Assembly (NCBI GenBank): GCA_963422645.2 | Contig: CAXXVO010000007.1 | Coordinates: 416,001 to 480,000, forward strand | Reading direction: 5' to 3' | Length of the DNA stretch: 64,000 nt | Origin: Alphaproteobacteria bacterium | GTDB taxonomy: Bacteria > Pseudomonadota > Alphaproteobacteria > UBA828 | Shown here: in pieces, positions 24,858 to 41,913 of the stretch | Position numbering within the stretch: the first letter of the stretch is position 1 | Layout of the letters: each line of letters begins with the position of its first letter | Notes under the pieces: model-generated | Databases searched by the model: none | Told to the model about the DNA's origin: nothing | The model's input: only the letters and a program-made list of their open reading frames with translations | Made by a program: the position numbers and the translations under genes

Positions 24858-25199
24858 TCTATGGTCGAACCGAAAGTCGGAATTCCGGAAATGAGTGAAA
24901 CACTGACGAGGCTGAAATCAGCGTTCGACCTTGGCCTTTCCCGGTATGCACCTTCTATGAATCGCCCGTTGTCGTGGCCGGAAATTTTCTTTGTTCCCGC
25001 TCCGGGGGACGGCAATATATGACGATTTTCTGGCAGAATGGGCGGTCAACTCCCCTTAGTCGAAATGACCACTCTTGCCGCCGCTAGGCGTCGGGACGAT
25101 CTACAATGATGGTATCGATCAGCTGAGAAATTGGCTCTGTTGGCATACAGAAAAGCCCTTTGCCGTTCATCGCGTCAGCCTAGGCATTGCCGATATAGC

Positions 25200-25596: not shown

Positions 25597-26055
25597 CGGT
25601 GTTCTCTCCGGTCAAAGTTTGGTCTCGCAACCAGATCCTACCGGAGACCGCCGATGACCAACCCGCTCTCCAGGTACACGATCGCGCCTCTGACGCGACC
25701 CTATATTTCAAGATGCCGGCGATCCACCGTCTTTTCTGGGCACATAGGACGAACCGAACCCATCGCGCGCGGACCGGCGAAGGCCTCACTCGGAAAGCCG
25801 CGCGTCGCTCCCCGGAAACCGGTCTCCGATTAGGGATCGGGGGTGGTAAGTTCGTGGACGGTGGCAGGCTGGAAGCATTCGCATGCCGACATGCCGTCGT
25901 GGATCTGGCAGTTTCCAGGAGGGCAATTGCCGCATCTTCGCGTTGACCTCCAGGAGCGGGAGGGACATAATGTACTTCATTTGTTCTCCAGAATCCAGAT
26001 TGGGATTTCCCCGGAAGATAGCAGCAGGGGCTGCCCAAACGGATGGGCCCTTTGG

Positions 26056-26084
26056 TTGACCGACAATGTCGCTTATAACATGAT
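26056..26084 (+). promoter_or_regulatory. Putative sigma70 promoter with palindromic operator
   Basis: TTGACC-N17-CATGAT; palindrome CGACA-A-TGTCG (26061-26071) lies in the spacer; GGAGG RBS at 26095 before the HTH gene. Confidence 0.5.
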
Positions 26085-26107
26085 GGGCGAAATTGGAGGC
26101 AGTGGCG

Positions 26108-26323
26108 ATGAAGAATGTCGATTTTGCCTCGCTCGTGAGGCTCGTGCGCGAGACTCGGGGGCAAACACAGGAAGAGCTCGCTCATGAGCTTGATGTCACG
26201 GTTGGTACGATGAATGGCTGGGAGAATGGAAGGCACCGCCCTGTCAGAGCCCAGCGTCGCCGACTGATCGCACTAGCTGAAGGGATGGGGCTCGCCGTCC
26301 CTGAGGCGGATCGTGACTCCTAG
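26108..26323 (+). CDS. XRE/Cro-type HTH regulator (controller-like)
   Basis: TQEELAHELDVTVGTMNGWENGRHRP HTH_3 signature. Confidence 0.88.
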   Translation: MKNVDFASLVRLVRETRGQTQEELAHELDVTVGTMNGWENGRHRPVRAQRRRLIALAEGMGLAVPEADRDS

Positions 26324-26388
26324 GCTAGGGGAGATGGGCCGGATGGTCGGGAGCGGGGTGTTGCTCTCAAAGACTGAGTCTTTCCAAA

Positions 26389-27768
26389 ATGGACGCGATT
26401 TCGCGGAGTGGGCCAGGGAGGCTGCCTGTGCGTCGCGATGATTCCCTAGTGGACATACATCTCCCCGTTGCGGAGGTCGCACCCACTTTCATCGATGTGT
26501 TTGCAGGGTGTGGTGGTCTCACACTCGGGCTCATGCGCGCCGGCTGGCGCGGGATTTTTGCCATAGAGAAGGATACCTTCGCGTTTGCCACGCTCGAAGC
26601 GAACTTCCTCCAGGCAACTGCACGTCATCAATTCGAATGGCCCGAATGGTTGCCGAAGAAGACCTGTGATATACGCGTGCTGCTTGAGACGCACGCTGAT
26701 GAACTAAGGAATCTGCGAGGTTCTGTAGATCTCTTGGCCGGAGGTCCACCGTGTCAAGGTTTTTCATCTGCTGGGCGCCGAAAGCCCCATGATCCCCGAA
26801 ACCAACTTTTCCGCGATTATGTCGCCCTCGTTGAACTCGTTCAGCCGCGACTGATCCTCCTCGAGAACGTAGAGGGTATCACATTCGCCTTCGGCGAGGA
26901 AGTAGTTCATGGAAGGATTACGAGACCAGGTTTGTGTGATAAACGCGAATCATACGCAGACTCTATTATAAGAACACTTGCGGCGAAGTATCACGTTTTC
27001 AGCTCAATTATCCGGTGCTCTGATTATGGAATTCCACAGAGCCGCCCAAGATTCATTCTTATAGGATACTCGAAAGAATGCTTCGATGAGGCAGATGTAG
27101 CCCAGCCGTTCGAACAAATCGAGTCGTGTCGTGCAGGTTTCCTTGCAGCGAGGGGATTAAAGTGTCGTACGACGGCAAAGCAAGCGCTTTCGGACTTGGC
27201 AATCAGACGAAATGGCCTCATAGATGGCGACGGGACGCCGCGCTTCAAGTCAATCGGTTATAGAGGACCGCTGTCTGCCTATCAAAAAGCAATGCGTGAT
27301 GGGTATACCGGAATACCGTCTGACACGCGCCTAGCGCGTCATCAACCGAACATTGTACGACGCTTTGCGCGCATCATTGCCGCAATGAAGAAGCGAAACC
27401 GGCTCGGCATCCAACTAAACGCAGAGCAACGGAAGGAATTCGGCGTGGCAAAGTCAACGCTGCGTGTGTTGAACCCGGAAGCTCCAGCACCAACGATCAC
27501 AAGTTTGCCCGACGACCTTCTTCACTATGAGGAACCTCGGACACTAACTGTCCGGGAGAATGCGCGTCTACAGACCTTCCCTGACTGGTTCGTGTTCAAG
27601 GGAAAGTACACGACGGGCGGCAACTTGCGCGCGCGCGAGGTGCCGAGATTTACGCAAGTGGCAAACGCTGTACCACCATTGCTAGCCGAGCTGTTAGGAA
27701 CGATACTCAGTAGAGCGATCACTCCGTGCAAGGATCGGGCCAAGGCGCAAAGAAGCGAGGCAGCGTAA
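26389..27768 (+). CDS. DNA (cytosine-5) methyltransferase
   Basis: Motif I FAGCGG, IV GGPPCQGFS, VI ENV, VIII PQSRPR, IX RLQTFPD, X QVANAVPP. Start codon uncertain. Confidence 0.96.
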   Translation: MDAISRSGPGRLPVRRDDSLVDIHLPVAEVAPTFIDVFAGCGGLTLGLMRAGWRGIFAIEKDTFAFATLEANFLQATARHQFEWPEWLPKKTCDIRVLLETHADELRNLRGSVDLLAGGPPCQGFSSAGRRKPHDPRNQLFRDYVALVELVQPRLILLENVEGITFAFGEEVVHGRITRPGLCDKRESYADSIIRTLAAKYHVFSSIIRCSDYGIPQSRPRFILIGYSKECFDEADVAQPFEQIESCRAGFLAARGLKCRTTAKQALSDLAIRRNGLIDGDGTPRFKSIGYRGPLSAYQKAMRDGYTGIPSDTRLARHQPNIVRRFARIIAAMKKRNRLGIQLNAEQRKEFGVAKSTLRVLNPEAPAPTITSLPDDLLHYEEPRTLTVRENARLQTFPDWFVFKGKYTTGGNLRAREVPRFTQVANAVPPLLAELLGTILSRAITPCKDRAKAQRSEAA

Positions 27769-27769
27769 C

Positions 27770-30031
27770 GTGGCCTACTATACTAACCCGATAATAGATT
27801 ATTTGCTTCGGCACTCTTATGGACAGGGCGGTACGGTGGCGGTACCGACTCGGGAAGCTGCCACGCCTGTGGCATCATCGGTACGCGTGAAGGGCGGGTT
27901 ACCAGCAGGTGTTCAGGACGTGCTCAATCGGCTCGTTGACGTCTACGCGGCGTGGACACCGTCCGCGAATAGCGTGCCGCTAGAGTGGTGTTTCCTGGTC
28001 GGAGGTCCCGGAAACGGAAAGTCCGAGGCGTTGCGCGAGCTTGCAGGTGCCTTGCAGGTCGAGCTGCCACTGCGAGTTGGTGGTGAGCCCGCGCCGAGGA
28101 CCGTCCCCCAAAGTTGGCCAAGCCAAGGCGCATTCGTTGTTCCAGGGCTGGAGATCGCGTTCGTCAACGACGCATCGGTTCCGCGGCAGGATGCGTATGG
28201 TAATCGCCGCACCGGATCACTGTTTCTCGATCTCCGCGATGGGGTTCGCCAACTGCTCAGAGACGGCCCTGCGGTCGTGATGTTCGCTAATGTAAACCGC
28301 GGGATCCTCGTCGAAGAGCGTAGGGCTCTTGATAATCCAAGGACAGAGGAGCCGCCAACAGCGGCGGCGGCCGCAATCATTCAATGGCTCGCAGATCCGC
28401 GCTCACATCAGGGTGGCTCGCGCATTGGAGTGCAGGTGACCGTTCCTGTAACCTCGACCTCCCCATACTACGGGCAGCTAACGGTCAAACTGACGGATCA
28501 TGGAGCTCCGCACGACATTGTCGTGCACGCGGTTTTTCTCGACACGCTCTCACTGCTTGAACCAACTCCCGGGCGTGATAGTCGTGAATCAATAGATTTC
28601 TCTACGCTCCCCCCGAAGTCCGCGCACTACGAGCCACTTGGCGGCCTGGCCGAAGGCCCGTTGTCGAGATCGTGTACAATCGCAGGTGACGTAACAGGCC
28701 AAGTCGCGGACAAGGCGCACTGGGAAGTCGGAGGGTGTCGCGCCGAGGGAACCGCGTCAATTTGTGAAGCGCACGCGTCCTGTCCGTTCGCGCAGAACGC
28801 TCGCTGGCTCCATGATCGGCAGCTACGCGAGCGGTTTCTCGATACACTCAGGGCAGCGGAACTGGCCGGTGGGCGCCGATTGACGTACCGAGACCTGCTC
28901 GGGCACCTCGGACTGGCTGTTATTGGTACACCGGAGCGTAGTTGGCTCACGGACGAGCACCCTTGTCGATGGGTTGAGCGCACGGTTCGCGAGGCGCGCG
29001 ACGGGAATGCACAGAGCTTGGCGGAACTCGCGAGCCACCGAATCTACGCGAACCTTTTCCCCGTCACGGACACTGCTGCCTGGCCAAGAAGAAGGGCACT
29101 GGCAGAGCCGCGCGCATATCGCGTGGTCGCGTCGACTATGCGGGCCGTTCATGACGCACCTCGTGTACGAGCATTTGAGCAAGCATTTAACTTAATTGAT
29201 CCGGCACGAGACACGGATTCATGGGGTGGATTGCGAGCGACGATCTTGGACATGGTGGAAGCCATGAATGTGTCGCCACCTGCTTCGGAAATCAGGACCA
29301 TCGATGGTTGGAACGATGAAGCGAGCTGTGAAATCGAACGGCAACTCGATGCGGTGGTTGCAGGAGAGATAATGGGAGAGTTCGGGCGCGGCCGCGAAGC
29401 ATTGGCGCGCGCGCAGCTGCTCCGTAAATGGCGAGCAGTGTTGCTACTGCGTCAGGCTGGCCTCGCCCTTGGATGGCTGCCCTACAAGGGCGTCATACAG
29501 AGCTGGCTGGCCGAGCATCAAGCGGCGTTGGGAAAGAGGGCACCTGGCGCGCTCCGTCGCGGTCTAAATTTCCTTGTCTTTCCCGGAGGGGACGAGCTGA
29601 ATCTTGCACCGTTTCGCCCCCGCACCATGGAGCTTGGCAGCGTCTTGCCTTCGAGCTGTGTGGTGGTTTCGCTTCTTGAGCGAGACATTCGACTTGAAAT
29701 TGTAGCCGACGGCGACACGCTGTCAGCAGAACTGCGATTGACGACTGCCCAAGGGGGTGCTGCAGAAGTGGTTACCCGGCTCCCGATCGATCTGCGGGTA
29801 GCTCGCGAGGCACTGCTCAACGTCGACGGCCCGTCCGGGTCATTCACGGAGATCGGTGAGGCAGCATTTGCGCGAATTGAACGGGCGCGTGCTGTGCTTG
29901 TCAGCGAGCGCTATTTAGCTAGCGCGAGACTGCTGTTCTCAGACACTGCGGGGCAGGAGTGGGAGATCACGCCTCAGACGATGGGTTCGTCTGAGTTTCG
30001 AATCCGACGAGATATCGGCGGATTGCGATGA
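27770..30031 (+). CDS. P-loop NTPase, DndF/DptF-like
   Basis: LVGGPGNGKS (Walker A), FVNDAS, ANVNRGIL, CPFAQN, TYRDLL, IDP. Motif order recalls DptF; this is from memory, not alignment. Confidence 0.55.
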   Translation: MAYYTNPIIDYLLRHSYGQGGTVAVPTREAATPVASSVRVKGGLPAGVQDVLNRLVDVYAAWTPSANSVPLEWCFLVGGPGNGKSEALRELAGALQVELPLRVGGEPAPRTVPQSWPSQGAFVVPGLEIAFVNDASVPRQDAYGNRRTGSLFLDLRDGVRQLLRDGPAVVMFANVNRGILVEERRALDNPRTEEPPTAAAAAIIQWLADPRSHQGGSRIGVQVTVPVTSTSPYYGQLTVKLTDHGAPHDIVVHAVFLDTLSLLEPTPGRDSRESIDFSTLPPKSAHYEPLGGLAEGPLSRSCTIAGDVTGQVADKAHWEVGGCRAEGTASICEAHASCPFAQNARWLHDRQLRERFLDTLRAAELAGGRRLTYRDLLGHLGLAVIGTPERSWLTDEHPCRWVERTVREARDGNAQSLAELASHRIYANLFPVTDTAAWPRRRALAEPRAYRVVASTMRAVHDAPRVRAFEQAFNLIDPARDTDSWGGLRATILDMVEAMNVSPPASEIRTIDGWNDEASCEIERQLDAVVAGEIMGEFGRGREALARAQLLRKWRAVLLLRQAGLALGWLPYKGVIQSWLAEHQAALGKRAPGALRRGLNFLVFPGGDELNLAPFRPRTMELGSVLPSSCVVVSLLERDIRLEIVADGDTLSAELRLTTAQGGAAEVVTRLPIDLRVAREALLNVDGPSGSFTEIGEAAFARIERARAVLVSERYLASARLLFSDTAGQEWEITPQTMGSSEFRIRRDIGGLR

Positions 30032-31569
30032 CAGGAAGTTGGCTAGTAAACTGCCTGCTCCCATTGCCGCGGCCAGAATATGCAAAGCAGACCGAAGCGC
30101 TGCTGACAGACCTGCTCTGGCGGTCTCGTGGCTCAAGCCTCGGTGGAAATACCGGGAACGGGGGATACTTCGAGGACCTTGCACGTATTAGGCACGGGAC
30201 GAAATCCCAGGACAAGCGCAGGCTCGTAGCGCGAAAGACGCAGGGGGGCTCCCCAAAGACATTGGAGACCTACCCTATTGCGCTAGAGACTTCGTTGGGC
30301 GAGTTGATTGATGGAGTGCCGCCCAGCCTAAACCCAATATCCGTAATTCTTGAATCCATTCTGGCGCCGCGGGCAAGGGGTGACAAGTCGCTCGCGTGCG
30401 CACCGATCACGCCTGATGTTGTGACCCTACAAACTCTACACGGCATGGTAAACAAGGACAGTCCGGCAAATCAGGCGCGCGCAATCGAGGCGGTCGGGTG
30501 GCTGGGAGGCTCGCCGGGAGAGGGCTACGTTGCTTCGGTCTTTCTGATCTCTCTCGTTGCTGAGCATTCCGGCGGCGCCTTGCACCGATTGATAACCGAT
30601 GCGCTCCGAACCATGGCTCAACATGTCTGGAGCGAGCTCGGCACAGGAGTTGAAGACTGGCGTGCCTGGCCGGCGGTGGGTCCTGTCGCGCTAGGGGATA
30701 GCCGGCCTCACGTGTTGGCCTCAGCTCGTTTTACCCCATTCAGATGGTTCTGGACTAAGTGGGCCACTCTTTGCGACCCCACGAGTGAATGGCGGGAGGC
30801 GCTTCCGGCCCGGCGTTTTACCGACTGGTCGCTCTGCCTGCTCCGGACCGCTCTGGCTTTCGCGTATCTTTGGGAAGCCGAGTTCTTCCGCCTCCTTCAT
30901 AGAGCTATCGTCGAAACGCGAGACGAGACGAGCCAAGCGGAGACTTCAGTCCTTGCGGTCACAAGTTTCATACAAAATGGAGAACGCCTAGCATCAATCG
31001 AACCCGTCGAAGTGCCTCCGTCCGAAAAGAATTCGTGGCCGGCACTGGAAGCTCTCTTGATGCAAGGCTACATGGCGCGAGAGGCAATTGAGAACGTGCT
31101 TGAGGAGCACCCGCTCCATCTCGATCTTTCGAACATTGAACCATGCAACTTAACCAATAGCATCGCCACTTGGATTACGGACTTTTCTCGTCTTGGTGGC
31201 AGAGCCCTGGAAGCGCGCTTGGAACCCGAGAGTAACACAGCGAAAAACACCCGAGAGTTCGTCCGATATCTGCTGGTCCCCAGGGTCTCAGACGATGACA
31301 CCGCAGATCAGGCGGACTTCTATTATCTCGCGCGCAGTAACCAGAAAAATTCTTGGTTTGAGCCAGGCCCGGAATGGCTGGCCGTCGTTTGTAGCCTTCT
31401 TTCGGGCCGGCCACGCGGACACTGCACTCTCGGCGAACTAGTGGATGATCTGGCGTCTCTCGGCATCCGCAATGAGCGGTCTGTCCTGGTAAATATGCTG
31501 GAAGAGGCGGGGCTGAGTACGGATAGTCCCGACGCCGACAACGCGCTTGTCATTCGATCGGCATTCTAG
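30028..31569 (+). CDS. Hypothetical protein, DndG/DptG-like
   Basis: ATGA-coupled. C-terminal wHTH-like TLGELVDDLASLGI...LEEAGLSTDSPDADNALVI recalls the DptG C-terminus. Confidence 0.45.
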   Translation: MTGSWLVNCLLPLPRPEYAKQTEALLTDLLWRSRGSSLGGNTGNGGYFEDLARIRHGTKSQDKRRLVARKTQGGSPKTLETYPIALETSLGELIDGVPPSLNPISVILESILAPRARGDKSLACAPITPDVVTLQTLHGMVNKDSPANQARAIEAVGWLGGSPGEGYVASVFLISLVAEHSGGALHRLITDALRTMAQHVWSELGTGVEDWRAWPAVGPVALGDSRPHVLASARFTPFRWFWTKWATLCDPTSEWREALPARRFTDWSLCLLRTALAFAYLWEAEFFRLLHRAIVETRDETSQAETSVLAVTSFIQNGERLASIEPVEVPPSEKNSWPALEALLMQGYMAREAIENVLEEHPLHLDLSNIEPCNLTNSIATWITDFSRLGGRALEARLEPESNTAKNTREFVRYLLVPRVSDDDTADQADFYYLARSNQKNSWFEPGPEWLAVVCSLLSGRPRGHCTLGELVDDLASLGIRNERSVLVNMLEEAGLSTDSPDADNALVIRSAF

Positions 31570-31586
31570 GATGGGGTTCCGCGAGA

Positions 31587-34500
31587 ATGAGATCGAATAG
31601 CATGGGATTCCTTGGACGAGCGATCGCAGCGCATCTTTCGAACCTCAAGGGACTGTACTCGGTTGAGCTACCGCTTTCCTTAGAGAAAGAGATGCTCGAC
31701 CTTGTTGCCGCGTGCAATTCGGTTGAGAGTACGCGGGCAGTCTTGGTCGGCGAGCGCGCGAACCTACCGGGCAATATCGTGCAAGTAAGTTGGCCCGACC
31801 TGCTCGGATGGCGGACGGCTGATGATCGAGTGTTCGTCTGGAGGCGGGGCGAGCGCGACCCGGATACGTCGTTCCGAGACGTAGTGCGTCCATTCATATC
31901 TGCTCGGTTTCCGGGAACTGGTGGAGGGGAATGCTCTAGCGACTTGCTCGCGAACCTCTGTGTAGACGAGCTGTGGCGGAGTCTCTCGCTTCCACTTGGC
32001 GGGCCTGTATTGGAATCTTTCAAGGACAGCGCCTCGTGGCTTGCGGAAGTACTAGTTGCAGCTTTCGAACATGCTGGCGGTACGGCGACAGAGCACTGGA
32101 CTGATCGGTTCCTGGAACATTGGGCGCTGACATGGTCAGACCTTGAAAAGGGAATGAAAAGCTTAGGCTCGGCCCCAGAGGAGCGGCACGCGTGGGAACT
32201 CTTGCGGCTAGCAGGGATCCCGGTTCCCGCGCGCGAAAGTGATACCGAAAACCCATTCCTGCAAACCCCAGTTGCGCGACTTCGTGGACTTGAAGTTGGT
32301 AGCGTGCGCTTCACCCGCTTTATCCAGTGGTGGCAGCTGGTCATCGACGAGTTCGTAATCCCTCGGGGCGGGATCGAAACGCTCTTGATGGCCTTGGATC
32401 TCCAAGTGCCAGGAGCCCAGAAACCTACGCCCTGGCGCGGGCTGGATTGGACGCGGGCGCTCGACATGACATCGGGAAGCCCTGCGCCAGTAGTGGCACG
32501 CCGTGTGTTTGCCTGCGCGCCTTCTCCAACCGTTCTCATGCCCAACCCGCCGGCCTTTCCCGTTGCCCCTGTTCCGGCATGGTGGGGCGTTAACGCCCAC
32601 CAGATCGCACGTGCGCAGAAGGCTCTGCATGAAGCCCGCGGATTAGTGAGCAACCCATCATGTACCAGCCTTACTGTTCTTCCCGGAAGGGAGGCCGCGC
32701 TCATCTTGTTGACACGGGCCGGCGCTGTTTCCGAGGAGACGTTGGCCAGGAAGTGGCGGGCGTCATTATCTCTTTCCGGTTTGTCATTACGACTCAAGGA
32801 GCCATGGACTTCGCTCCTCGTCGCGCACTCACCGCCGCCTCAAGGAGCCCATGGGACAACTGCAATAGAGCCGGACAGTGTGAAGTTGCACGTTTCGGGG
32901 ACTGGTGTGAAAGCCGAGGTCCGCGCGGTCCGCGTTTCGTCGGGCGAGCACCTTCAGGTGGAGTTCGATACTACGATCACTTACTCGGCTGCCGTTGATT
33001 CTCGTGGTACGAAATCCGGCTCGTGGCATCCTGTTCGGGCGTTGCGCCTTACAGCGAGCGCCCGCGATGGCAATGGAACCGGTTGGGGTGAACTTCGCAC
33101 CGTAGACCACTCGGTAGAGGTGGTTGTTCCGTCGTGCTTTTCGCCCACGTTACTGTCCTATAGTGGAAGTCGGGGCAAGATTGTGGTTGCACCGGACCGC
33201 GGGGACACCTTTGTTCGCGTTGGGCCCGGCGACGCGAACTGGAACGCGAGTTCCACGCCGGATTTGTTGCTTGCCGAGGAAGGCTCGTATGACCTCGTCG
33301 GTTACGATGGCAGAATCATTGGCGGAGGTTCGTTCGGTGCGGAAGCGGTGATCGAAGTTGAAGGTCGCTCATTCACCTTGATCGGCGGGTTGCAACATGT
33401 CGAGGCGAGGTTAGACGAGGGCGATCAAGTAACAGGATCGACTACGGGCGTTATAGCAGTTGCAAAGGTTAGGCAACGTTCGCGCTCTGTTACGTCGGGC
33501 CTTGTGGCGGCGATAAGGAAGTCGGGACCGGGGCGAAAGCCTCCCTCTTCGAGCGCGCGCTCTAGCGTTCTGGGCCGCTTTCAGAGTGCGGTCGCCAGCT
33601 CGGTTCGGGGATCCAGCGACGACACTCACAGTAGCTTGTTTCAGTACGTCCTCGGGACAGCTCAAACCATCACTGAATGGCCGCCGCTCTGTTCAGGCAC
33701 AGCGCCAACCGTCATGGCTAATCTCCCAGTGGGCTTCCAATTGCCTGGAGTCGGGAACGGTCTGAGCCCCTCCGTGGTTGCGAGTACCACGTGGATAGAA
33801 TTCATGGCCGCCGCGCATGCTGTGCTGGATCACCTCGGTGTGCGCCAAGCAGGAGAAGAGATCTGGCTTTCAGCGATGAATCCTGGCGAGTTGCCAGGCG
33901 TTGTTGTTTGGGCTCTTGTCGAAGCACACCGTAACTTGATCGCTGATGTTCGGGCCGCGTCCGCGGGAGATGCGTTCTGGGCGAGCTACCCCTTTTCGGT
34001 CATCGTGGTAGACGACACACCTGGCGCGAATCTTGGACAGGTTCAAGCGGTCTTTCTTTCGCCGCTCCATCCCGTTCGGTTAGCGTGGGCGTTTTCTGTG
34101 GCGCGCCTTGCCCAAAGCCCCGGTGTCGACCGTACACTGCTCGGGCTAGCGGAGGGATGGAATCTGCCGCTGACAGGTACAACGATCTCAGTTACTGGCC
34201 AGCCAATCCCGATGGTAGCTTTACCCCTTGATCCCGGGGAGGACGCCGACTTCGCTACCTGGAGCGCCCTCGCCATCCTCGGAAATGATGGTCTTGTCCG
34301 TGCGCCAAGACTTGCCGCAGGTCTCGAGCTTCCCTGGGGTGGTCCTAGCGGTATTAATGAGAAGGTAGTTAGTCAGGCGATCACCGACTACCTCTCCATC
34401 CATCCGTACCTGAACTCTCTCGAGATAGATGTCCGATCAGTGTCGCGGGCGCCTCGGGCCCGTGAAATTGATGACGCCCTTATCCGCACGGTTGGAGGAG

Positions 34501-37496
34501 CCACGGTAAACGAAGTTTCTCTACTGGGTGGAGCAACGCGCGTTTGGGATTCCCGAAATAGACTGGGAGAACCACCCTCGCGCGATCAACTACTGAAACT
34601 GCGCGATACAAATCGGCGGGACCGTCCGTTCGAATGGCGTCGTTACTCGGAGACAAGCGCGGCGCCAGTTTCCGATATCGCACTTATCGAGAGCGCCAGC
34701 GCCCACATGGGGGCTGTCGAAGCACAAACTACCGGCGTACTCGGACCATTACCGCTTCGGCGATTCACTGTTCCCGCGATATCAGGCCAAGTGCTTGACC
34801 AGCAGTACGCGGCGTACCCCGGAGATGACGTGTTGGGTATCTCGCGATTGCTGGCCGAGATCGAGCATACCTTGCCAAGCGGACTTGCCGCTCTCCGCGT
34901 TGCGCCACAGGCGAATGCCCTCGGTATAGGTAGCGGTGCTCGATGGGAGGTACTTGGCACGCTCAACGTAGATCCCGCTCTCTTGTCGAGAATCATTAGG
35001 TCGAGTGGCCACGCTGACCGCATGCTCTGGGAATGGCGCCCGTCTTGGCTTGCGAGTGGCCATGGGGATCGAGATGAAATTGCGAAGCGAGCCCATTACG
35101 TCGTAGCGCGCGTGCCGGCATCGCTCGCAAGAGGCCTTGCCATCCGGCAAGGGCTAACGGAGTCACGCGCTCGAGAAATGATTACCGAGTTAGGACGTCG
35201 CGGTATTGGCCTGGCTTCGTTGCAGGCTACCGGCGGTACGCAGGAGAGTGCAGCGGCAGGCCACTTCTATGCAACTCGGCTGTTGCTTCCCCCCGAGGGA
35301 CATGCACAGCCACAAAGCTGGTTTACTCCCGCCAACAATACATATTCTGGACTTCTGCCCATAGACCCAGTGTCAGAAATCTTGTGCGCCATTGCCGGGG
35401 AGTCCCCTAATCGCCGTGCCGATCTGCTCGTGTTCAAGGTGATTATCGAGGGCGATGCGGTCCGCGTCAAAATCTTACCCATCGAGGTGAAGCACCATGG
35501 CCAACCCCAGTCACCGAGCCCGCTCCCCGCAGATTCTGATCGGGAGCTCAAGCGCGCCAGGGAACAACTGAAGGAGGCTTCGAAGCTCGTTCGAGCATTG
35601 TCAGCAGCGCTAGATCCAGGTCCGGAACTCGCTGACGATCCCGCAGCCGCGGTTACGCGCAGACAAGCTTGCGCAGTTCTCCTCGATCTTGCACTCAGTT
35701 TCGCCGACGAGGAGGTAGACCCTCGGGCTCGAGCGATGATCCTAAGATGCGTGGTCCAAGGGCGAGTGGTCGTCGATGCGGCACCCGCAATGCTGCTTTG
35801 GTTCGCCCCCGGTTCCATGGCTTCAAGCGGAGCGGCGTGCATAGTTCGCCCCGGCACGGGGGGAAGCCGCGAAGCCTTCATTGACCCTGCGGTGGTTCCT
35901 GGCACCTGGTGGCAAGATACACCGCCAGGACCTGACGACGCTGCTTTGAGAAGTGCGATTGACGACGCACTGCGGGAGATGCTCAGGGCAAGAAAGGACA
36001 TCCCCGCGGAACCAGAAACCGATCTCACCGCAGCGCTCTTGGGAATGCTTGATCTGGCGTCTGACACGGCAAGTGAACCCGCACCTGCCGGACCGACTGA
36101 GGGTGAACCTACCGGATTGCTGCCAGCGGACCGAGAAGCGGACCAATCAGGAACGGCCGATCCGAAAACGAGTGAACTCGCAGCGCGAGTAATCGAAGCT
36201 AGGGTAGATGCAAATTCCGCCACCACTTCCCACGCTGATATTAAGGCTTCCAATGAGCCTGCGTCGTCCGTCTTTGTACCTGCCAACATGGCACCTCCGG
36301 CAGCTTATGTTGGTTGGGATAAGCCCGCTACACGATATTGTCTCTTGGGAAATCTTGTTGATACCGGCGAGAAGGTGGGACTTGACCTTGATAATCCGAA
36401 GGCGATTGGGGTTTTCGGATATATGGGTTCAGGCAAGAGCTATCTGCTTGGAACGCTGGTCGAGTCGTGCCTTGTCCCGATAGCGGGTATCAACTCGCTA
36501 CCGGCACCTCTCGCCGTTGTCATCTTCAATTACCGCCGCCACTCCGCCGATCGTTTCGAGTTAAGCTCTCTTGCGCACCCCAATCCCGATCAGAAAGACC
36601 GCGAGCGCCTCGAACGGATGTATCAAGCGTCACCTCAGGCAGTGGACGATATTCATATACTGTGCCTCCCCGGCCAACTAACTCCGGAGCGGGTCGCCGA
36701 GTACGGCGGCTTGCCGACTACGGAGCTCTTTTTCGATCCATCCGCGCTTGGCGTGGAGGATTGGGAGCTCCTCATGGGTGAACCTGGGAGCAACGCCGTA
36801 TTTGCCAGGGCAATCAGAAATTCATTGATGGATCTGCAGGCGGCCGGCGATGTCAGCCTCGAAAGCCTCGAGCGAAGCATCGCCAATACGCTGAACAGGG
36901 CGAGTCAATCGGCGGCTCAGCTTAGGTTGGACTTCATGCGTAGGTATCTCTCTGCGGAGCGAGGTCTACGATTTGGCGAAATTCTGAGACCAGGGCGAAC
37001 TGTGATTTTCGACCTTCGCCAACCTTTGTTCAACAAGGATGATGCCCTCCGTTTTTTCTTGGTATGCTCAAATCATATCAGCCGGGTACAAGGCGGGTTC
37101 AACAAGCTCGTCGTATTTGATGAAGCGCACGAATACTTGAGCGAGGCATTCGGAGAGAAGATAGAAGCGCGAATCCGTTTAATGCGACATGAGGGTACGT
37201 CGTACGTCTTTGCTACACAGGACGTGGGGTCAATCCCCCTCCAGGTCAGGCGGTTCATCACCACGAGGTTTGTCTTTGGCCTGGGGACTCGCGACAACGT
37301 CAATGATCTGGTGCGATTTGCGCCAGAATTTGCAAACCTGCCGTTGCAACAGCTCGCACCAGGAACTTGCTATGTCCAATCAGCCCCCTCACAACGCAAT
37401 TTGTTTGAGCGCCCGCGATTGGTTCAGGTGCGCCCGCGAGTGACACAGCATGGTGGAACAAGCCGGATCTTCCCAGTCGCGGCTGAAGACAAGTAG
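31587..37496 (+). CDS. 1969-aa protein with PD-(D/E)xK-like motif and C-terminal HerA/FtsK-like ATPase, DndH/DptH-like
   Basis: LSPLHP; RRADLLV...PIEVK; GYMGSGKS (Walker A); VVFDEAH (Walker B); R..RHEG (Arg finger); FATQ. Confidence 0.65.
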   Translation: MRSNSMGFLGRAIAAHLSNLKGLYSVELPLSLEKEMLDLVAACNSVESTRAVLVGERANLPGNIVQVSWPDLLGWRTADDRVFVWRRGERDPDTSFRDVVRPFISARFPGTGGGECSSDLLANLCVDELWRSLSLPLGGPVLESFKDSASWLAEVLVAAFEHAGGTATEHWTDRFLEHWALTWSDLEKGMKSLGSAPEERHAWELLRLAGIPVPARESDTENPFLQTPVARLRGLEVGSVRFTRFIQWWQLVIDEFVIPRGGIETLLMALDLQVPGAQKPTPWRGLDWTRALDMTSGSPAPVVARRVFACAPSPTVLMPNPPAFPVAPVPAWWGVNAHQIARAQKALHEARGLVSNPSCTSLTVLPGREAALILLTRAGAVSEETLARKWRASLSLSGLSLRLKEPWTSLLVAHSPPPQGAHGTTAIEPDSVKLHVSGTGVKAEVRAVRVSSGEHLQVEFDTTITYSAAVDSRGTKSGSWHPVRALRLTASARDGNGTGWGELRTVDHSVEVVVPSCFSPTLLSYSGSRGKIVVAPDRGDTFVRVGPGDANWNASSTPDLLLAEEGSYDLVGYDGRIIGGGSFGAEAVIEVEGRSFTLIGGLQHVEARLDEGDQVTGSTTGVIAVAKVRQRSRSVTSGLVAAIRKSGPGRKPPSSSARSSVLGRFQSAVASSVRGSSDDTHSSLFQYVLGTAQTITEWPPLCSGTAPTVMANLPVGFQLPGVGNGLSPSVVASTTWIEFMAAAHAVLDHLGVRQAGEEIWLSAMNPGELPGVVVWALVEAHRNLIADVRAASAGDAFWASYPFSVIVVDDTPGANLGQVQAVFLSPLHPVRLAWAFSVARLAQSPGVDRTLLGLAEGWNLPLTGTTISVTGQPIPMVALPLDPGEDADFATWSALAILGNDGLVRAPRLAAGLELPWGGPSGINEKVVSQAITDYLSIHPYLNSLEIDVRSVSRAPRAREIDDALIRTVGGATVNEVSLLGGATRVWDSRNRLGEPPSRDQLLKLRDTNRRDRPFEWRRYSETSAAPVSDIALIESASAHMGAVEAQTTGVLGPLPLRRFTVPAISGQVLDQQYAAYPGDDVLGISRLLAEIEHTLPSGLAALRVAPQANALGIGSGARWEVLGTLNVDPALLSRIIRSSGHADRMLWEWRPSWLASGHGDRDEIAKRAHYVVARVPASLARGLAIRQGLTESRAREMITELGRRGIGLASLQATGGTQESAAAGHFYATRLLLPPEGHAQPQSWFTPANNTYSGLLPIDPVSEILCAIAGESPNRRADLLVFKVIIEGDAVRVKILPIEVKHHGQPQSPSPLPADSDRELKRAREQLKEASKLVRALSAALDPGPELADDPAAAVTRRQACAVLLDLALSFADEEVDPRARAMILRCVVQGRVVVDAAPAMLLWFAPGSMASSGAACIVRPGTGGSREAFIDPAVVPGTWWQDTPPGPDDAALRSAIDDALREMLRARKDIPAEPETDLTAALLGMLDLASDTASEPAPAGPTEGEPTGLLPADREADQSGTADPKTSELAARVIEARVDANSATTSHADIKASNEPASSVFVPANMAPPAAYVGWDKPATRYCLLGNLVDTGEKVGLDLDNPKAIGVFGYMGSGKSYLLGTLVESCLVPIAGINSLPAPLAVVIFNYRRHSADRFELSSLAHPNPDQKDRERLERMYQASPQAVDDIHILCLPGQLTPERVAEYGGLPTTELFFDPSALGVEDWELLMGEPGSNAVFARAIRNSLMDLQAAGDVSLESLERSIANTLNRASQSAAQLRLDFMRRYLSAERGLRFGEILRPGRTVIFDLRQPLFNKDDALRFFLVCSNHISRVQGGFNKLVVFDEAHEYLSEAFGEKIEARIRLMRHEGTSYVFATQDVGSIPLQVRRFITTRFVFGLGTRDNVNDLVRFAPEFANLPLQQLAPGTCYVQSAPSQRNLFERPRLVQVRPRVTQHGGTSRIFPVAAEDK

Positions 37497-37497
37497 C

Positions 37498-38193
37498 GTG
37501 ACCAGTCGGGCGATTCCTTTGGATGCGCCAACCCTCAATAAGGCTCGTTGGTGTCGCCGTCAACTCCTCGCGTGGTATGTTCGACATGGTCGCGAATTTC
37601 CATGGCGTTCGTGCAATGCGAGTCTCTACCAGCAGGTCGTCGCCGAGGTCCTGCTTCAGCGAACACAAGCTTCGACAGTCAGCAAGTTCTTTGACTCTTT
37701 CTTTCAGAAGTTCAAGACTTGGAATGACATCGACATGGCTCCGATTGGGCAGTTGGAGAATGCGCTTAGACCTATCGGTCTTTGGCGACGAAGAGCAACC
37801 GCCCTGAAGGCACTTGCTAGGGAACTGGTAGTGCGAGGGGGCAGTTTTCCACCATCGCGCGAGGAACTTGAGGCCTTGCCCGCTGTCGGGCAGTATGTCG
37901 CGAGCTCTGTGCTATTGTTCGCATACAATCGTGCAGAGCCTTTGCTTGATGAAAGCATGGCGCGCGTCATTGAACGTGTATTCGAGCCGCGACGTCTGGT
38001 GGACATTCGCTATGACCGGCGCCTGCAAGCTCTGGCGCGGTTATTGGTGCGGTCGCGCAATCCAGCTCGGGTCAACTGGGCGCTGCTCGATGTGGCCGCT
38101 CGAAACTGCCTCCGTCGAACACCGAATTGCAATGAGTGTCCCCTGAAACGACATTGCAATTTCGCGAATGGCATTAAGGTGCCGACGTACTGA
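37498..38193 (+). CDS. HhH-GPD DNA glycosylase with [4Fe-4S], Mig (T:G mismatch)-like
   Basis: FPWR, EVLLQRT, IGL...RA, LPAVGQY, conserved Asp, C-x6-C-x2-C-x5-C; no MutY NUDIX tail. Confidence 0.8.
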   Translation: MTSRAIPLDAPTLNKARWCRRQLLAWYVRHGREFPWRSCNASLYQQVVAEVLLQRTQASTVSKFFDSFFQKFKTWNDIDMAPIGQLENALRPIGLWRRRATALKALARELVVRGGSFPPSREELEALPAVGQYVASSVLLFAYNRAEPLLDESMARVIERVFEPRRLVDIRYDRRLQALARLLVRSRNPARVNWALLDVAARNCLRRTPNCNECPLKRHCNFANGIKVPTY

Positions 38194-38386
38194 ACATCTG
38201 CGTCTGCCGTTTAATGGCGCGGGTTTGTTTAGAGGTACCTGTCACCATAAGGGCAAGAGCGCGACACGCTCACACCGCGTATGAAGGTAGCCTAATGTTT
38301 GTGCGGATCTCGAACGAAAACACTGCGAGGCTCACGAAATACGTGGCCCAAGAATGTCGAACCTCTTCCGGGAGTGGAAGGAAGAA

Positions 38387-39074
38387 TTATTTGTCGGACA
38401 GTCGCCGCCCGTGAGCCTCCACAATACGCGATATTCCTTTGTCTAGAATTTCTATATTGATGCGTGCTTTCCGATATAGAGCAATATGCATTTTGACAAA
38501 TATATTGAATAAGTTCGCTTGATGGACCATGGTCCCGAAGAAGAGTTGATTTACAGCTTCTTCGTCATCGACGAGAAATGGTGCGATCGATCCCAAGTTT
38601 CCGTCCGTTGGCTTGAACTGAGTTCTGGCTCCGGCGAAAAGCAGTCGGACACCAAGCTTGTCGAATGAGTCGTACCGAGCCATTTGTGTGGCAACATCGG
38701 GAGAACGTCCGAAATGTCTCGCTCGGTCTAAGGGATTTTGAAGAACGAGTTGAGGTCCATGTTTGAGCTTGTTGTAAGCAATCGAAACTCTCGGAATTTG
38801 TGTCTCAACGTGGAACGAATTAGCAACTCGCCGGAGCTCGCTGGGAAGCTGTCTCCAAAACTCAATATGGCGTTTGGGAATGAGCCTTGTGCTCGGAATT
38901 GCTCGCCATTTGTACCCGAGAAAGAACTCGACGATCTCCGCATCGGTCTTTTCGCATACTTCCTGAAAAAACGATCTTCGGTTTACCTGAACGCTTGTGG
39001 ATTTGTTGCTCTTTAGTTTTGTGTGTACCTCTTGTATCTCGGACCCATCTTTTATCGTCAATTGGTGCCTCATG
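38387..39074 (-). pseudogene. Lower-GC hypothetical protein (possible HEPN-like), probably 5'-truncated by IS66
   Basis: YNKLKHG motif; the first Met abuts the IS66 IR at 39075. Confidence 0.4.
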
Positions 39075-39687
39075 GTAACTGCCCAGGTACCCCCTCTCTC
39101 TTATGGAACAAGCCAGTTCCTTTTGCGTCAACGCCCCCACGCCGCGGGGGTGCCTACTCTCTTGAGCGCGAGAGGATGATGAACGCCGCGTCGCGAACAA
39201 GATGAGAGGACAGCGATACTCAGGATGAGCCGGAGAAGTTCAGGAGCGCAGTATAGGGATCAGCTGCATCGGTTCCGGGTGCGCCAGGATTTGCAGGATG
39301 TTCCAGCCTTGCTTTCGAGCGGTGACGATGACGCTGCGCATTCCGGCGAAGTTGCAGGCGCCTTGCAGGGAGCGGAAGCCGCCTGAGATCTTCTCATGCA
39401 CTTTGTTCATACGGATGTCACGCTCCGCCTCGTTATTCGTGAACGGCGTGCGCAGGTCGGTGAGGAAGCGCAGGCAGCCCTCCTTATGCTTTTGAAGGCG
39501 GCGCGCGAGGTTGTGGCCGATGCGGCGTTTCTTTCGCCCTCGCTTTGCGATCTGGAGCGGCGGTTGGGCCTCATGGAAGGCGATGGCTTCTTCGAGGATA
39601 CGGTCCCATGCCCTTGAGATGCGGGCCACCAGGGAGGCGGGGACTTGACGGTCTTTCTCACGGGCGAAGCGGGCGGCCCTGCGCGCG
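39075..39687 (-). mobile_element. Partial IS66 copy (IRR plus 3' end of tnp)
   Basis: Reverse complement of 60395-61007; begins GTAACTGCCCAGGTACCCC. Confidence 0.93.
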
Positions 39688-39919
39688 AAACCGACCCGAT
39701 TTGCCGCCGTCGCAAGACCCCTGAAACGCCCCGAAAATCGCCGTTTCCAGCCAATTCACGGCCTCTGCACGGCCCGATTCGCAAAGACTTCCGTCCGCAC
39801 GCCAGCCGCCGCACCGCCACCGTGCCGCCGCGCATCCCCTTGAGATTCCGCCACCTTCCGCCCGATTCCGCCTGATTCCACCCCTTGACCCGATTCACAA
39901 CGACTTTCGTCCGTCTACA

Positions 39920-41005
39920 ATGGCGATCACCGCTGATCCCCCGTCAACGGCACCGGACCTGCTGAGTGCGGATGGCTCGGGAACGCCCGCCGACAACACA
40001 ATGCTCGAGGAGACGGCCGACGCGGCCAGAACGAAGATCGTCGACTGGGCCGACACTGTGTACGAGCGAACGACTGCGTCGGATTCAACCGATACGTTCG
40101 TGATTTACAGCAACAAGGGCGGGCCAACGCCCACGGCGTTTCACATGGTCCACCCGCTCGACAGCAATGGGGCGTTGGTCCTCGACAACTCGAAATTGGG
40201 GTTGGTCAGCGGCGTGGCCGGGTTCCCGTCGGCAGTCAATCAGGTGGACGTGCCGTTCATGGACGACGATGAGTTCACGGGCATGTTCGACGATGCGCCG
40301 GGCACCTACACGTGCGTCTCGATGTGCACCCTCTCAACCGATGTGGACGGCGAGTTGGTCGACGTCGACGGCGATTGGCAGTTTGCGCCCGATGACGACG
40401 AGTTCCCGGTGCCGGTGGACGACAGCGACTACGTCCATTTCGGCTATTGGATGAATGAGTCAGGAGAAGACGACCAGCCCGTCATCATGGCGGCCGCCAT
40501 CGCCGGCGGAACCGCCGAGTCCGCGATCGGCACCGTTCAAGACCTGGAAGGCCACGCGACCTACACCGGGGCGGCGACAGGTCTCTATGTGATCAGGACC
40601 TACACGCTGGACGGTGATATCGATAGCCGAAGGGGCGGACAGTTCACCGCCGACGCGATGCTGACGGCCTACTTCGGCGGTGACGACGTGGCGGTCAACA
40701 AACATTACTCGATCGTTGGCTCGATCAAGGACTTCGTGGACCGGCACGGTAGAGCCATCGACTCCAGCTGGACTGTGGACCTGGCAGCGCAGTTCGGCAG
40801 CCAACAGGGCGCCATGTTCGAAGGAGATACCGTGGGCGACACAGTCGAAGGTACGGGCTCCTGGGATGGCCGGTTCTTCGGGCCCAGCAACGCCGCGACG
40901 CCCGGCAATCAGTCCACGTTCCCGAGCGCCGTGGCTGGCACCTTCGACGCTCAGTTCACCAACGGCGCCGTCATCGGCGCCTTCGGCGCGGTGAACGACG
41001 AGTAG
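39920..41005 (+). CDS. Acidic transferrin-binding-protein (TbpB)-like beta-barrel surface protein, probably N-truncated
   Basis: FGYW, ATYTGAATGLYV, GQFTADA, GSWDGRFFG, VAGTFDA, GAFGA; no signal peptide or lipobox. Confidence 0.6.
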   Translation: MAITADPPSTAPDLLSADGSGTPADNTMLEETADAARTKIVDWADTVYERTTASDSTDTFVIYSNKGGPTPTAFHMVHPLDSNGALVLDNSKLGLVSGVAGFPSAVNQVDVPFMDDDEFTGMFDDAPGTYTCVSMCTLSTDVDGELVDVDGDWQFAPDDDEFPVPVDDSDYVHFGYWMNESGEDDQPVIMAAAIAGGTAESAIGTVQDLEGHATYTGAATGLYVIRTYTLDGDIDSRRGGQFTADAMLTAYFGGDDVAVNKHYSIVGSIKDFVDRHGRAIDSSWTVDLAAQFGSQQGAMFEGDTVGDTVEGTGSWDGRFFGPSNAATPGNQSTFPSAVAGTFDAQFTNGAVIGAFGAVNDE

Positions 41006-41073
41006 CGCAGACGGAGCGGGCGCGCGACGGCGAAGACGTCAATTGATCCCGACGGCGCCTTTCGCCCCTCTCT

Positions 41074-41832: not shown

Positions 41833-41913
41833 GTAAGACTCCCGTGCCCGCGCGTTGGTGTGAGTTCGGCCCCCTGATAGTGCATATCCCCGGCACTCTC
41901 AACGCGCCGGGAG

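Follow-up and report, generated by a model that had tools for sequence, protein, structure and literature searches.

A conserved bacterial gene cassette linking a cytosine-5 DNA methyltransferase to a distant, putative DndFGH/SspFGH-like restriction module

Introduction

To our knowledge, only two members of the large class of three-gene restriction modules have been characterised, DndFGH and SspFGH, and both are known only as readers of phosphorothioate (PT) modification. Here we analyse a six-gene island in a 64,000-nucleotide stretch of an alphaproteobacterial genome (lineage UBA828; GenBank assembly GCA_963422645.2, contig CAXXVO010000007.1, positions 416,001 to 480,000; hereafter the window), in which three genes that resemble dndFGH and sspFGH are accompanied by genes for a cytosine-5 (C5) DNA methyltransferase, a small helix-turn-helix (HTH) protein and a Mig-like glycosylase. 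We believe that this island is a real, conserved and probably new version of FGH-type restriction that is coupled to 5-methylcytosine (5mC), with a function that we infer from its sequence.

DndFGH has been described as a translocating nickase with a 2:2:1 stoichiometry, and PT as a repressor of its ATPase (PMC11662687). SspFGH alone is reported to damage unmodified host DNA and to be detoxified by the cognate modification (PMC8092258) and, according to the legend of Fig. 5B in PMC6435447, G6mATC can replace PT-modified GATC in resisting DndFGH. A further point of comparison is MADS, a defence system marked by N6-methyladenine (m6A), which is described as comprising eight genes (mad1-8) and an OLD-like MAD3-MAD4 nuclease (PMC13662399). 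In the account of its authors, mad5 could be deleted only together with mad2 or mad3, and they suggest lethality for the loss of mad5 by itself (bioRxiv 10.1101/2023.03.30.534895).

Results

The F protein resembles DndF and SspF

The three consecutive proteins of 753, 513 and 1969 amino acids (aa) that follow the methyltransferase had been proposed in the initial annotation to be distant F, G and H subunits, and we use these letters for them throughout. An exhaustive search for relatives of F returned 354 representatives, and the F-family alignment used here (A1) consists of 42 sequences. The F translation contains the motifs GGPGNGKS, VNDAS and NVNRG. Invariant positions in A1 comprise G78, G83, K84 and S85 in Walker A, D134 in VNDAS, and N176 and G178 in VNRG. 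The motifs on which the initial annotation had relied are present and conserved in both large proteins, with GxxGxGKS, NDA and N.G.L being invariant or nearly so in the 42 F-family sequences and SPLHP, EVK and G.MG.GK being found in the H family. As defined in PMC10853773 (Rakesh, Aravind and Krishnan), the signature of DndF combines a canonical Walker A motif, an ND motif after strand 2 and an Asn that replaces the Walker-B Asp. The F family displays this signature at the sequence level.

These motifs are in line with our profile comparisons. On its own, the window F matched SspF only among the PADLOC models, and weakly so (7.1e-4 over 64 residues), and SspF was matched by 15 of the 42 A1 members (best 1.8e-9), none of which matched any other PADLOC family. 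For a direct comparison, we used a reference set of 21 F, G and H proteins from seven DptFGH/SspFGH loci. This set includes a bona fide DptFGH locus (L008), which is matched by TIGR03238, TIGR03236 and TIGR03237 at 5.4e-148, 5.2e-91 and 0, and three SspFGH loci that adjoin sspBCD-sized genes (L038-L040). A hidden Markov model (HMM) built from A1 ranked six of the seven F-position proteins above every G and H protein (4e-14 to 2.2e-5) and missed the seventh (xF_L043), and its matches to SspF and DptF fall in two colinear regions, namely the P-loop and the start of the lid. When the F alignment was compared with one canonical DptF by hhalign, the match was weak (probability 34%). A profile search of the PDB with F gave sub-threshold rows only, 19 of 27 of which are adenylate, shikimate, gluconate, UMP/CMP or polynucleotide kinases, and PDB sequence searches with the single F, G and H proteins of the window returned no match. 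Based on the SspF matches in the family and on the HMM ranking of the reference F proteins, the proposal that the 753-aa protein is a distant F holds, and we consider it, on sequence grounds, to be a divergent member of the DndF/SspF superfamily.

Two further observations concern the reference families themselves. The F protein of L041 (G099:C1), an F-G-H locus that also contains divergently oriented genes for proteins of 364, 1127 and 298 aa, scores 7.9e-62 on the SspF model and, weakly, 1.4e-5 on the DptF model, and is possibly a sequence bridge between the two families. In addition, the canonical DptF (L008:10003-11619) also matches the PADLOC model 'REase_II, Type II restriction enzyme' (PDLC03556, 4e-111), so that the source of this model seems to class DptF-like proteins with type II restriction genes.

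The H protein shares colinear motifs with DptH

The 1969-aa H protein consists of an N-terminal region, a beta-rich region, an LSPLHP motif (at residue 825), a PD-(D/E)xK nuclease, a low-complexity linker and a C-terminal HerA/FtsK-type ATPase (Walker A at residue 1611). In the H-family alignment (A3, 45 sequences), D1260, D1279, E1300 and K1302 are invariant and make up the PD-(D/E)xK nuclease signature, and the Walker A motif GYMGSGKS, the Walker B motif FDEAHEY (DEAH) and an ATQD motif are nearly invariant. Residues 1588-1904 match PADLOC mad8 at 5.4e-15, and residues 1587-1811 show a weak match to Pfam DUF87/HerA that is under the Pfam cut-off (3.5e-4).

Three motifs can be aligned between H and canonical DptH, and all three are colinear: FLSPLHPVRLAW at 825 in H corresponds to YLSPLHPLTLAY at 646 in DptH (LSPLHP), ILPIEVKHHG at 1296 to LLPLEVKIGQ at 1112 (P[IL]EVK), and GYMGSGKS at 1611 to GTMGTGKT at 1353 (G.MG.GK). 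The spacing between the first two is 471 residues in H and 466 in DptH. Moreover, when the A3 profile was searched against all PDB sequences, the top match was 7es4, the solved C-terminal domain of DptH (3.6e-7), which ranked above HerA proteins, and in the ESM Atlas clusters named DptH score 0.96 for H. In comparisons with single models, hhalign of the H alignment against one DptH recovered the P-loop only (probability 80%), and a search of the window H against TIGR03237 DptH and PADLOC DndH and SspH found nothing at E<=0.1.

Two distant loci described below (L061 and L062) help to connect these families. Their H proteins match PADLOC DndH at 8e-67 and 1.4e-62, respectively, the latter match extending back through the nuclease region, and they also match the window H-family HMM at 2.9e-18 and 7e-10 via the LSPLHP and nuclease regions; the reverse comparison agrees. 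Judging by these matches, the L061 and L062 proteins bridge the gap between the window H and DndH. The type of the C-terminal ATPase varies within the H family according to precomputed Pfam annotation, with FtsK_alpha and FtsK_SpoIIIE in the Chloroploca protein P0310 (L013:11575-17442) and AAA/RuvB-type domains in P0328. BLAST similarity of the Chloroploca H to the window H ends at about residue 1505, and from the sequences this variation looks like domain swapping. A comparable variation of the C-terminal ATPase is described for DndH under the term 'HerA/FtsK capture' (PMC10853773).

DndH is defined by an N-terminal inactive SWI2/SNF2 C-domain with an HTH, by two beta-sandwich domains and a target recognition domain (TRD), and by an inactive DAM methylase in which another TRD is nested. 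In an AlphaFold2 (AF2) model of H residues 250-1440 (pLDDT 85.2, pTM 0.73), segment positions 103-381 form one long all-beta stretch, after which come alpha/beta domains and the nuclease. For this model, the best sub-threshold Foldseek rows were to tandem Ig-like domains (2e-3 to 1e-2) and to Rossmann methyltransferases (with probabilities of 0.6-0.8 and E of 0.025-0.2). Similarities of these two kinds would be expected of two beta-sandwiches and an inactive methylase, but we regard them as too weak to count. The colinear motifs, together with a nuclease and an ATPase in common with DptH, nevertheless bear out the earlier proposal that the 1969-aa nuclease and HerA/FtsK protein is a distant H.

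The G protein occupies the position of DndG and SspG

G belongs to a family of at least 149 cluster representatives, all of which are annotated as 'hypothetical' and lack Pfam families. The protein matched nothing in PADLOC, NCBIfam or Pfam, and a profile search of the PDB was empty. Its AF2 model (pLDDT 83.2, pTM 0.89) is mostly helical and ends, at residues 448-510, in a helix-strand-helix-helix-strand arrangement that forms one clear winged-helix-like unit. According to PMC10853773, DndG is built of three winged-helix domains, which together make a compact, three-bladed DNA-binding protein with a relationship to SspB and the FokI recognition domain.

Several features place G with the G subunits. 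Its position between F and H is fixed, with a 4-bp overlap with F, and its length of 513 aa is similar to that of SspG (509-593 aa). Among its ESM Atlas features, a 'DptG' cluster holds rank 3 (0.96) and a MAD7 cluster scores 0.90. The C-terminus of G, which ends AGLSTDSPDADNALVIRSAF, resembles by eye the C-termini of SspG (LGLVRRLSDSCSFVENPF) and DptG (MGNVERMSDSGDAVYV), and a C-terminal G-L-x-x-(x)-S-(P)-D-A motif, likewise identified by eye, is shared between them. We therefore presume, from position, size, C-terminal motif and language-model features, that G is the putative DNA-recognition subunit. The suggestion of the initial annotation that G corresponds to DndG is favoured by these four features and not by the HMM, hhalign and Foldseek comparisons taken up in the Discussion, which leaves G as a putative member of the DndG/SspG family only.

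A C5-methyltransferase adjoins F-G-H in all genome loci

For a comparison across genomes, we took ten genome loci with a G homologue (L009-L018). These span Alphaproteobacteria (among them Roseomonas ponticola, Xanthobacteraceae, Phenylobacterium and Brevundimonas), Rokubacteria, Chloroploca (Chloroflexota), Pirellulales and another member of the Planctomycetota. Linkage with METHYLTRANSFERASE was found throughout: a homologue of the window's methyltransferase (P0002; 42-76% identity) adjoins F-G-H in 10 of 10 loci. It lies upstream and co-oriented in eight and downstream and convergent in two (L013 and L017). One of the ten (L009) is a metagenome-assembled genome of uncertain read quality and shows apparent gene breaks. 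When the F profile was run against 401 genomes of the phylum, two further strong matches were obtained (G039 and G041; loci L061 and L062). Although their F, G and H proteins are less than 26% identical to those of the window, both loci carry a P0002-like methyltransferase directly upstream (44% identity in one, 30-46% in two segments in the other). Taken together, all 12 genome loci, which are not phylogenetically independent, have a P0002-like C5-methyltransferase (30-76% identity) beside F-G-H.

On metagenome contigs, many of which are fragments, the methyltransferase could be shown in 12 of 33, most of the other 21 being too short to judge. Spacing and identities do not differ between L068, L069 and L070, which probably represent a single element. 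Of the contigs that lack the methyltransferase, two pairs have a module disrupted by mobile elements. In L071 and L072 the H gene is interrupted by an insertion sequence (IS). The 5' end of the F gene is replaced by three tandem tyrosine-recombinase genes in L064 and L065; these 'recombinase in trio'-like genes (L064:699-4107, and also in L065) take the place of the methyltransferase and the first ~118 F codons in a cassette relative that is 76% identical. By comparison, in seven DptFGH/SspFGH control loci of 13-20 kb neither the methyltransferase nor the glycosylase nor the HTH protein has a relative. Conservation of the methyltransferase linkage, on which the initial annotation had made its proposal depend, is borne out by 12 of 12 genome loci and 12 of 33 metagenome contigs as against 0 of 7 PT-linked controls.

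As a separate observation, the cassette relative in L073 lies directly downstream of genes for two TIR-domain proteins, one of which is a protein kinase-WD40-Ras/Roc-TIR protein of 1372 aa (L073:19-5264), which by its gene content would be a defence-island-like setting.

No dndC, dndD or SspC match and no recognised defence system

The window's genome comprises 5.9 Mb in 23 contigs and is 99.58% complete with 8.48% contamination. Neither TIGR03183 (dndC) nor TIGR03185 (dndD) nor SspC had a match in this genome, dndA, dndB, dndE, sspA and sspB not having been searched, and an SspD query gave a marginal match only (8.1e-4). As far as the search extends, this agrees with the initial annotation, which had seen none of dndABCDE in the window.

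PADLOC 2.0 recognised no system at the island. BREX, DISARM, Druantia and Hma were considered and dropped, as only the methyltransferase was matched (by the DruM and DrmMII methylase models) and no other component. In the literature that we surveyed, whose scope did not extend to supplements, DefenseFinder or REBASE, we found no description of a C5-methyltransferase coupled to DndFGH/SspFGH-like genes; the supplementary gene-neighbourhood data of PMC10853773, which lie outside this scope, could contain such loci. In the part of that paper covered here, cytosine methylases are reported only with CxC-ABC/DndE modification systems. The proposed novelty stands insofar as we found no such system in PADLOC 2.0 or the literature, but the arrangement is less unprecedented than it had seemed, given that the m6A-based MADS contains a DndG-like MAD7 and a DndH/SspH-like ATPase, MAD8, and that 6mA can replace PT.

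The methyltransferase, glycosylase and HTH protein

The 459-aa protein matches Pfam DNA_methylase (8e-48), PADLOC MTase_II PDLC03234 (1.7e-77) and TIGR00675 dcm (2.6e-36). Its translation shows FAGCGG, GPPCQGFS with the catalytic PCQ, ENV, QSRPR, RENARLQTFPD and ANAVPP, blocks that we take to be the usual C5-methyltransferase motifs. From these matches we identify it as a cytosine-5 DNA methyltransferase and propose that it is the self-marking enzyme of the island. The genome holds a second C5-methyltransferase gene (L097; G000 contig C22:78633-79646; PF00145, 1.9e-51).

The glycosylase matches Pfam HhH-GPD at 1.6e-13, and its translation contains a C-x6-C-x2-C-x5-C iron-sulphur loop and lacks the MutY C-terminal domain. 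Its best match among all PDB sequences is 1kea, a 'possible G-T mismatches repair enzyme' from Methanobacterium (1.7e-30), which ranks narrowly above MutY catalytic domains, and its score on TIGR01084 mutY (143.8 bits) is under the cut-off of 286.5. It also matches the REBASE-derived PADLOC model PDLC03398 'Type II nicking endonuclease' at 2.6e-32 over positions 8-216 of 221. With an HhH-GPD fold, a [4Fe-4S] loop, no MutY C-terminal domain and an association with a C5-methyltransferase, the protein has the features of a Mig-type enzyme, and since its best PDB match is Mig.MthI (1kea), the initial description of it as Mig-like was a fair one. By homology, it probably repairs T:G mismatches left by deamination of 5mC. 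Nine of the L009-L018 loci extend far enough beyond H, and in six of them a homologue lies directly 3' of H. Ten metagenome contigs have one as well, and the two distant loci do not (no P0006 match). As it is absent from L013, L017, L018, L061, L062 and L083, the glycosylase appears to be a frequent accessory that is dispensable for the cassette.

The small HTH protein matches Pfam HTH_31 (2.3e-9) and HTH_3 (4.6e-6) and, weakly, PADLOC 'Control_protein' (0.047), and among the loci compared only the two closest (L009 and L011) have a homologue in the equivalent position. This Xre-type protein is likely to be a C-protein-like controller of the operon.

Comparison with the closest described systems

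The island resembles DndFGH in having three genes in the same order with G and H of similar sizes, in the Walker A, ND and Walker-B Asn features of F, and in the order and spacing of LSPLHP, P[IL]EVK and a HerA/FtsK-type ATPase in H; furthermore, the top PDB match of the H profile is a DptH structure, and the ATPase type varies between members, as it does in DndH. It differs in that the window F is about 200 residues longer (753 aa as against 538 aa for canonical DptF), in that G has no detectable similarity, and in that the neighbour is a C5-methyltransferase rather than dndABCDE, with dndC and dndD not found in the genome.

With SspFGH, the island shares the sole PADLOC family matched by F, similar protein sizes (SspF 606-635, SspG 509-593 and SspH 1801-1824 aa in three reference loci) and a C-terminal ATPase of H that matches mad8, as does that of SspH. 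In contrast to SspFGH, which adjoins sspBCD, the window module adjoins the C5-methyltransferase in a genome without a match to SspC. No HMM similarity was found in G, nor in H outside the ATPase, and LSPLHP was not found in the three SspH sequences.

MADS is likewise marked by base methylation and contains relatives of the G and H subunits. Canonical DptG (L008:11623-12924) matches PADLOC mad7 at 5.9e-35 and SspG does so at 9.6e-6, and SspH matches mad8 at 4.4e-21 (L038:9517-16472). From these matches, MAD7 appears to be a homologue of the G subunit of the Dnd and Ssp restriction modules, and MAD8 one of the ATPase in their H subunit. This is paralleled in the window by the mad8 match of H and the MAD7 cluster among the features of G. 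However, the island does not belong to MADS as it is defined: the MacSyFinder model for MADS is given as requiring MAD6, MAD7 and MAD8 (bioRxiv 10.1101/2023.03.30.534895), and of these only mad8 was matched, by the ATPase part of H, with no match to mad6 or mad7, and window F and G match no mad model at all. Furthermore, the PADLOC mad8 model is only 314 positions long, so MAD8 is probably a short ATPase and not a 1969-aa fusion. Unlike in MADS, the only methyltransferase of the cassette is a type II-like C5 enzyme, its H is a DndH-like fusion of full length that is accompanied by an F subunit, an OLD-like module is lacking and a Mig-like glycosylase is added.

Finally, the short HhH-GPD/[4Fe-4S] glycosylase beside a C5-methyltransferase, with 1kea as best PDB match, recalls the pairing of C5-methyltransferases with Mig/Vsr repair enzymes, but here the pair flanks a 10-kb F-G-H module rather than a type II endonuclease, and the glycosylase is dispensable.

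Layout and setting of the island

The genes of the island and the flanking mobile elements are listed in Table 1. As had been noted in the initial annotation, the six open reading frames (ORFs) are co-oriented, intact and tightly packed, with successive gaps of 65 bp and 1 bp, a 4-bp overlap, and gaps of 17 bp and 1 bp; the last of these, between H and the glycosylase, depends on the glycosylase starting at the GTG codon. The low G+C content of the island was also confirmed (0.51-0.62 at 25-40 kb, compared with 0.64-0.73 in most flanking kilobases). The description of the surroundings as shattered by ISs fits the apparently complete IS upstream and the IS66 fragment downstream, these flanks being the part that our annotation covered. 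In the complete IS, Transposase_29 is split over two overlapping minus-strand ORFs (22340-24058 and 23389-24717), which could reflect a frameshift or programmed frameshifting. The ORFs beside the IS66 fragment (38387-39073, 39407-39898, 39920-41005 and 41039-42415) have no Pfam match. Promoter-like (25943-26084) and terminator-like (38205-38219) sites flank the cluster in numbers that are not above those in shuffled sequence, and neither a tRNA gene nor an island-bounding direct repeat was found around the cassette.

Table 1. Genes of the island and flanking insertion sequences (positions within the window)
Feature	Position	Strand	Remarks
IS, apparently complete	22336-24860		Inverted ends 22336-22356 / 24840-24860 (21 nt, 95% complementary)
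HTH protein	26093..26323	+	76 aa from TTG 26093, 71 aa from ATG 26108
Cytosine-5 DNA methyltransferase (by sequence)	26389..27768	+	459 aa
DndF/SspF-like P-loop protein (F)	27770..30031	+	753 aa
Protein in DndG/SspG position (G)	30028..31569	+	513 aa
DndH/SspH-like protein (H)	31587..37496	+	1969 aa
Mig-like HhH-GPD glycosylase	37450..38193	+	247 aa from ATG 37450; 231 aa from in-frame GTG 37498
IS66-family transposase fragment	39240-39629	-	Last ~60 positions of DDE_Tnp_IS66 model only (9.4e-12); just downstream of cassette

Discussion

The initial annotation had interpreted the island as a distant F-G-H module in which a cytosine-5 methyltransferase stands in place of the dnd or ssp genes and which is accompanied by a Mig-like glycosylase, and our analyses support this interpretation. 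We consider it likely that the island is a restriction-modification (RM)-type defence in which the C5-methyltransferase marks self and F-G-H attacks unmarked DNA. We propose the methyltransferase as the source of the self mark because PT represses DndFGH, SspFGH damages unmodified DNA and 6mA can substitute for PT. In the mechanism that we envisage, the methyltransferase would write 5mC on host DNA at its own target motif, and DNA without this mark would be attacked by an F-G-H complex, in which F would be the P-loop nucleotide-binding subunit, G the presumed DNA-recognition subunit and H the nuclease and HerA/FtsK-type motor. Such a complex would load on DNA, translocate with its motor using ATP and nick via the PD-(D/E)xK domain, and 5mC at the cognate motif would suppress the motor on host DNA, much like PT does for DndFGH. 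Similar to Vsr and Mig beside other C5-methyltransferases, the glycosylase would remove T from T:G mismatches that arise by 5mC deamination and thereby limit the mutational cost of 5mC, and the small HTH protein would control expression. The behaviour that we would predict for the window module is that described for SspFGH, which is reported to be toxic without its modification module (PMC8092258).

Several observations weigh against this reading. None of the 42 F-family members matches NCBIfam DptF, and the window F, G and H proteins are matched neither by the NCBIfam DptF, DptG and DptH models nor by the PADLOC models for DndF, DndG and DndH. HMM and hhalign comparisons of G with three SspG proteins, DptG and three others found nothing (probabilities <1%), and Foldseek of the G model against the PDB returned no row at E<=0.001, neither FokI nor SspB being recovered. 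The corresponding Foldseek search with the H model was also empty at E<=0.001, BpuSI-like enzymes were absent, and the N-terminal and inactive-methylase domains that define DndH are not demonstrated in H. Over the ten genome loci, the pairwise identities of F, G and H correlate with one another at 0.96-0.98, whereas those of the methyltransferase are only loosely congruent with them (Spearman 0.55-0.60); F, G and H evolve as a unit, and the methyltransferase may evolve more slowly or be exchanged occasionally. In two metagenome contigs (L073 and L083), of which one side only is covered, the module looks intact and a methyltransferase is missing from the stretch that is covered. In PMC10853773, DndFGH is argued to work without any modification module, its sensing being proposed to proceed via nucleotides and multiple DNA-binding domains. 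Lastly, our reading as a whole is drawn from gene linkage and homology.

Some of these points would suit a standalone counter-invader, that is, an F-G-H module that needs no self mark and that shares an island with an unrelated methyltransferase-glycosylase pair or with the remnant of a type II system. The loosely congruent identities of the methyltransferase and the two contigs without it in their covered flanks are consistent with such a module, and pairs of a C5-methyltransferase with a Mig/Vsr-type repair enzyme do exist alone, as in the case of M.MthTI with Mig.MthI. In addition, the eight genes of DndABCDE and DndFGH are stated to occur together in only 316 of 5228 taxa (7%) (PMC10853773). 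We nevertheless regard a standalone module as unlikely. The same methyltransferase subfamily adjoins F-G-H in every one of the 12 genome loci, across several phyla and even where the F-G-H proteins are less than 26% identical, and it keeps its place in two arrangements, upstream and co-oriented or downstream and convergent. Moreover, it is found in none of the seven PT-type control loci, and there are only two C5-methyltransferase genes in the 5.9 Mb of the window's genome, which makes a chance adjacency to F-G-H very unlikely.

Alternatively, F-G-H could be modification-dependent (type IV-like) or dual, attacking foreign cytosine modification while the methyltransferase blocks the site or acts as an epigenetic regulator. 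Among eight longer, distant F-family members, two carry N-terminal domains of kinds known from modification-dependent enzymes, which would fit this idea, namely DUF3427 in P0185 (5.1e-11) and an McrB-like N-terminal domain in P0249 (4.5e-27), and the extensions of the other six have no Pfam match. These fusions hint that parts of the F superfamily may read cytosine modification directly, leaving room for a modification-dependent variant, and DndF itself has been suggested to sense modified nucleotides (PMC10853773). However, the fusions are absent from the window F and its close relatives, a resident C5-methyltransferase beside a 5mC-cutting enzyme would be self-destructive unless their specificities differ, and the studied relatives DndFGH and SspFGH are described as attacking unmodified DNA (PMC11662687; PMC8092258), all of which makes a system of this kind very improbable here. 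Even less credence is due to the notion that the island is the DNA-processing machinery of a mobile element, with a HerA/FtsK pump and nuclease for transfer or segregation and a methyltransferase for anti-restriction: the low G+C content, the position between an IS and an IS66 fragment and the use of HerA/FtsK ATPases in conjugation and packaging elsewhere (PMC10853773) would agree with it, but no relaxase, integrase, replication or coupling genes are seen inside the conserved unit, the block conserved elsewhere consists of the methyltransferase and F-G-H with or without the glycosylase only, G was unmatched by tblastn among 72,556 plasmid records, and the L073 relative lies beside TIR-domain proteins in a defence-island setting.

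Returning to F-G-H as a restriction module that spares 5mC-marked DNA, a more general possibility, for and against which we find ourselves evenly balanced, is that F-G-H modules are general readers of epigenetic self-marks that have been coupled independently to PT (Dnd and Ssp), to m6A (MADS, via MAD7 and MAD8) and to 5mC (the clade of the window). If this were true, the cassette would represent a new class of ATP-dependent restriction-modification systems that use 5mC and bring their own glycosylase for deamination repair, and it would contradict the claim that DndFGH-type systems have no inbuilt modification module. A clade that is consistently wired to a cytosine-5 methyltransferase would alter the picture of DndFGH as a standalone system and would imply that the machine could use a base mark. 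As 5mC motifs can readily be mapped, and readily be introduced in vitro, they would also offer an easier handle on how FGH modules discriminate self from non-self. Moreover, an ATP-dependent RM-like system would be added to the defence catalogues, which now miss the cassette. Since it occurs in soil and water bacteria of several phyla, the cassette may be a widespread obstacle to phages and genetic manipulation that has so far escaped notice.

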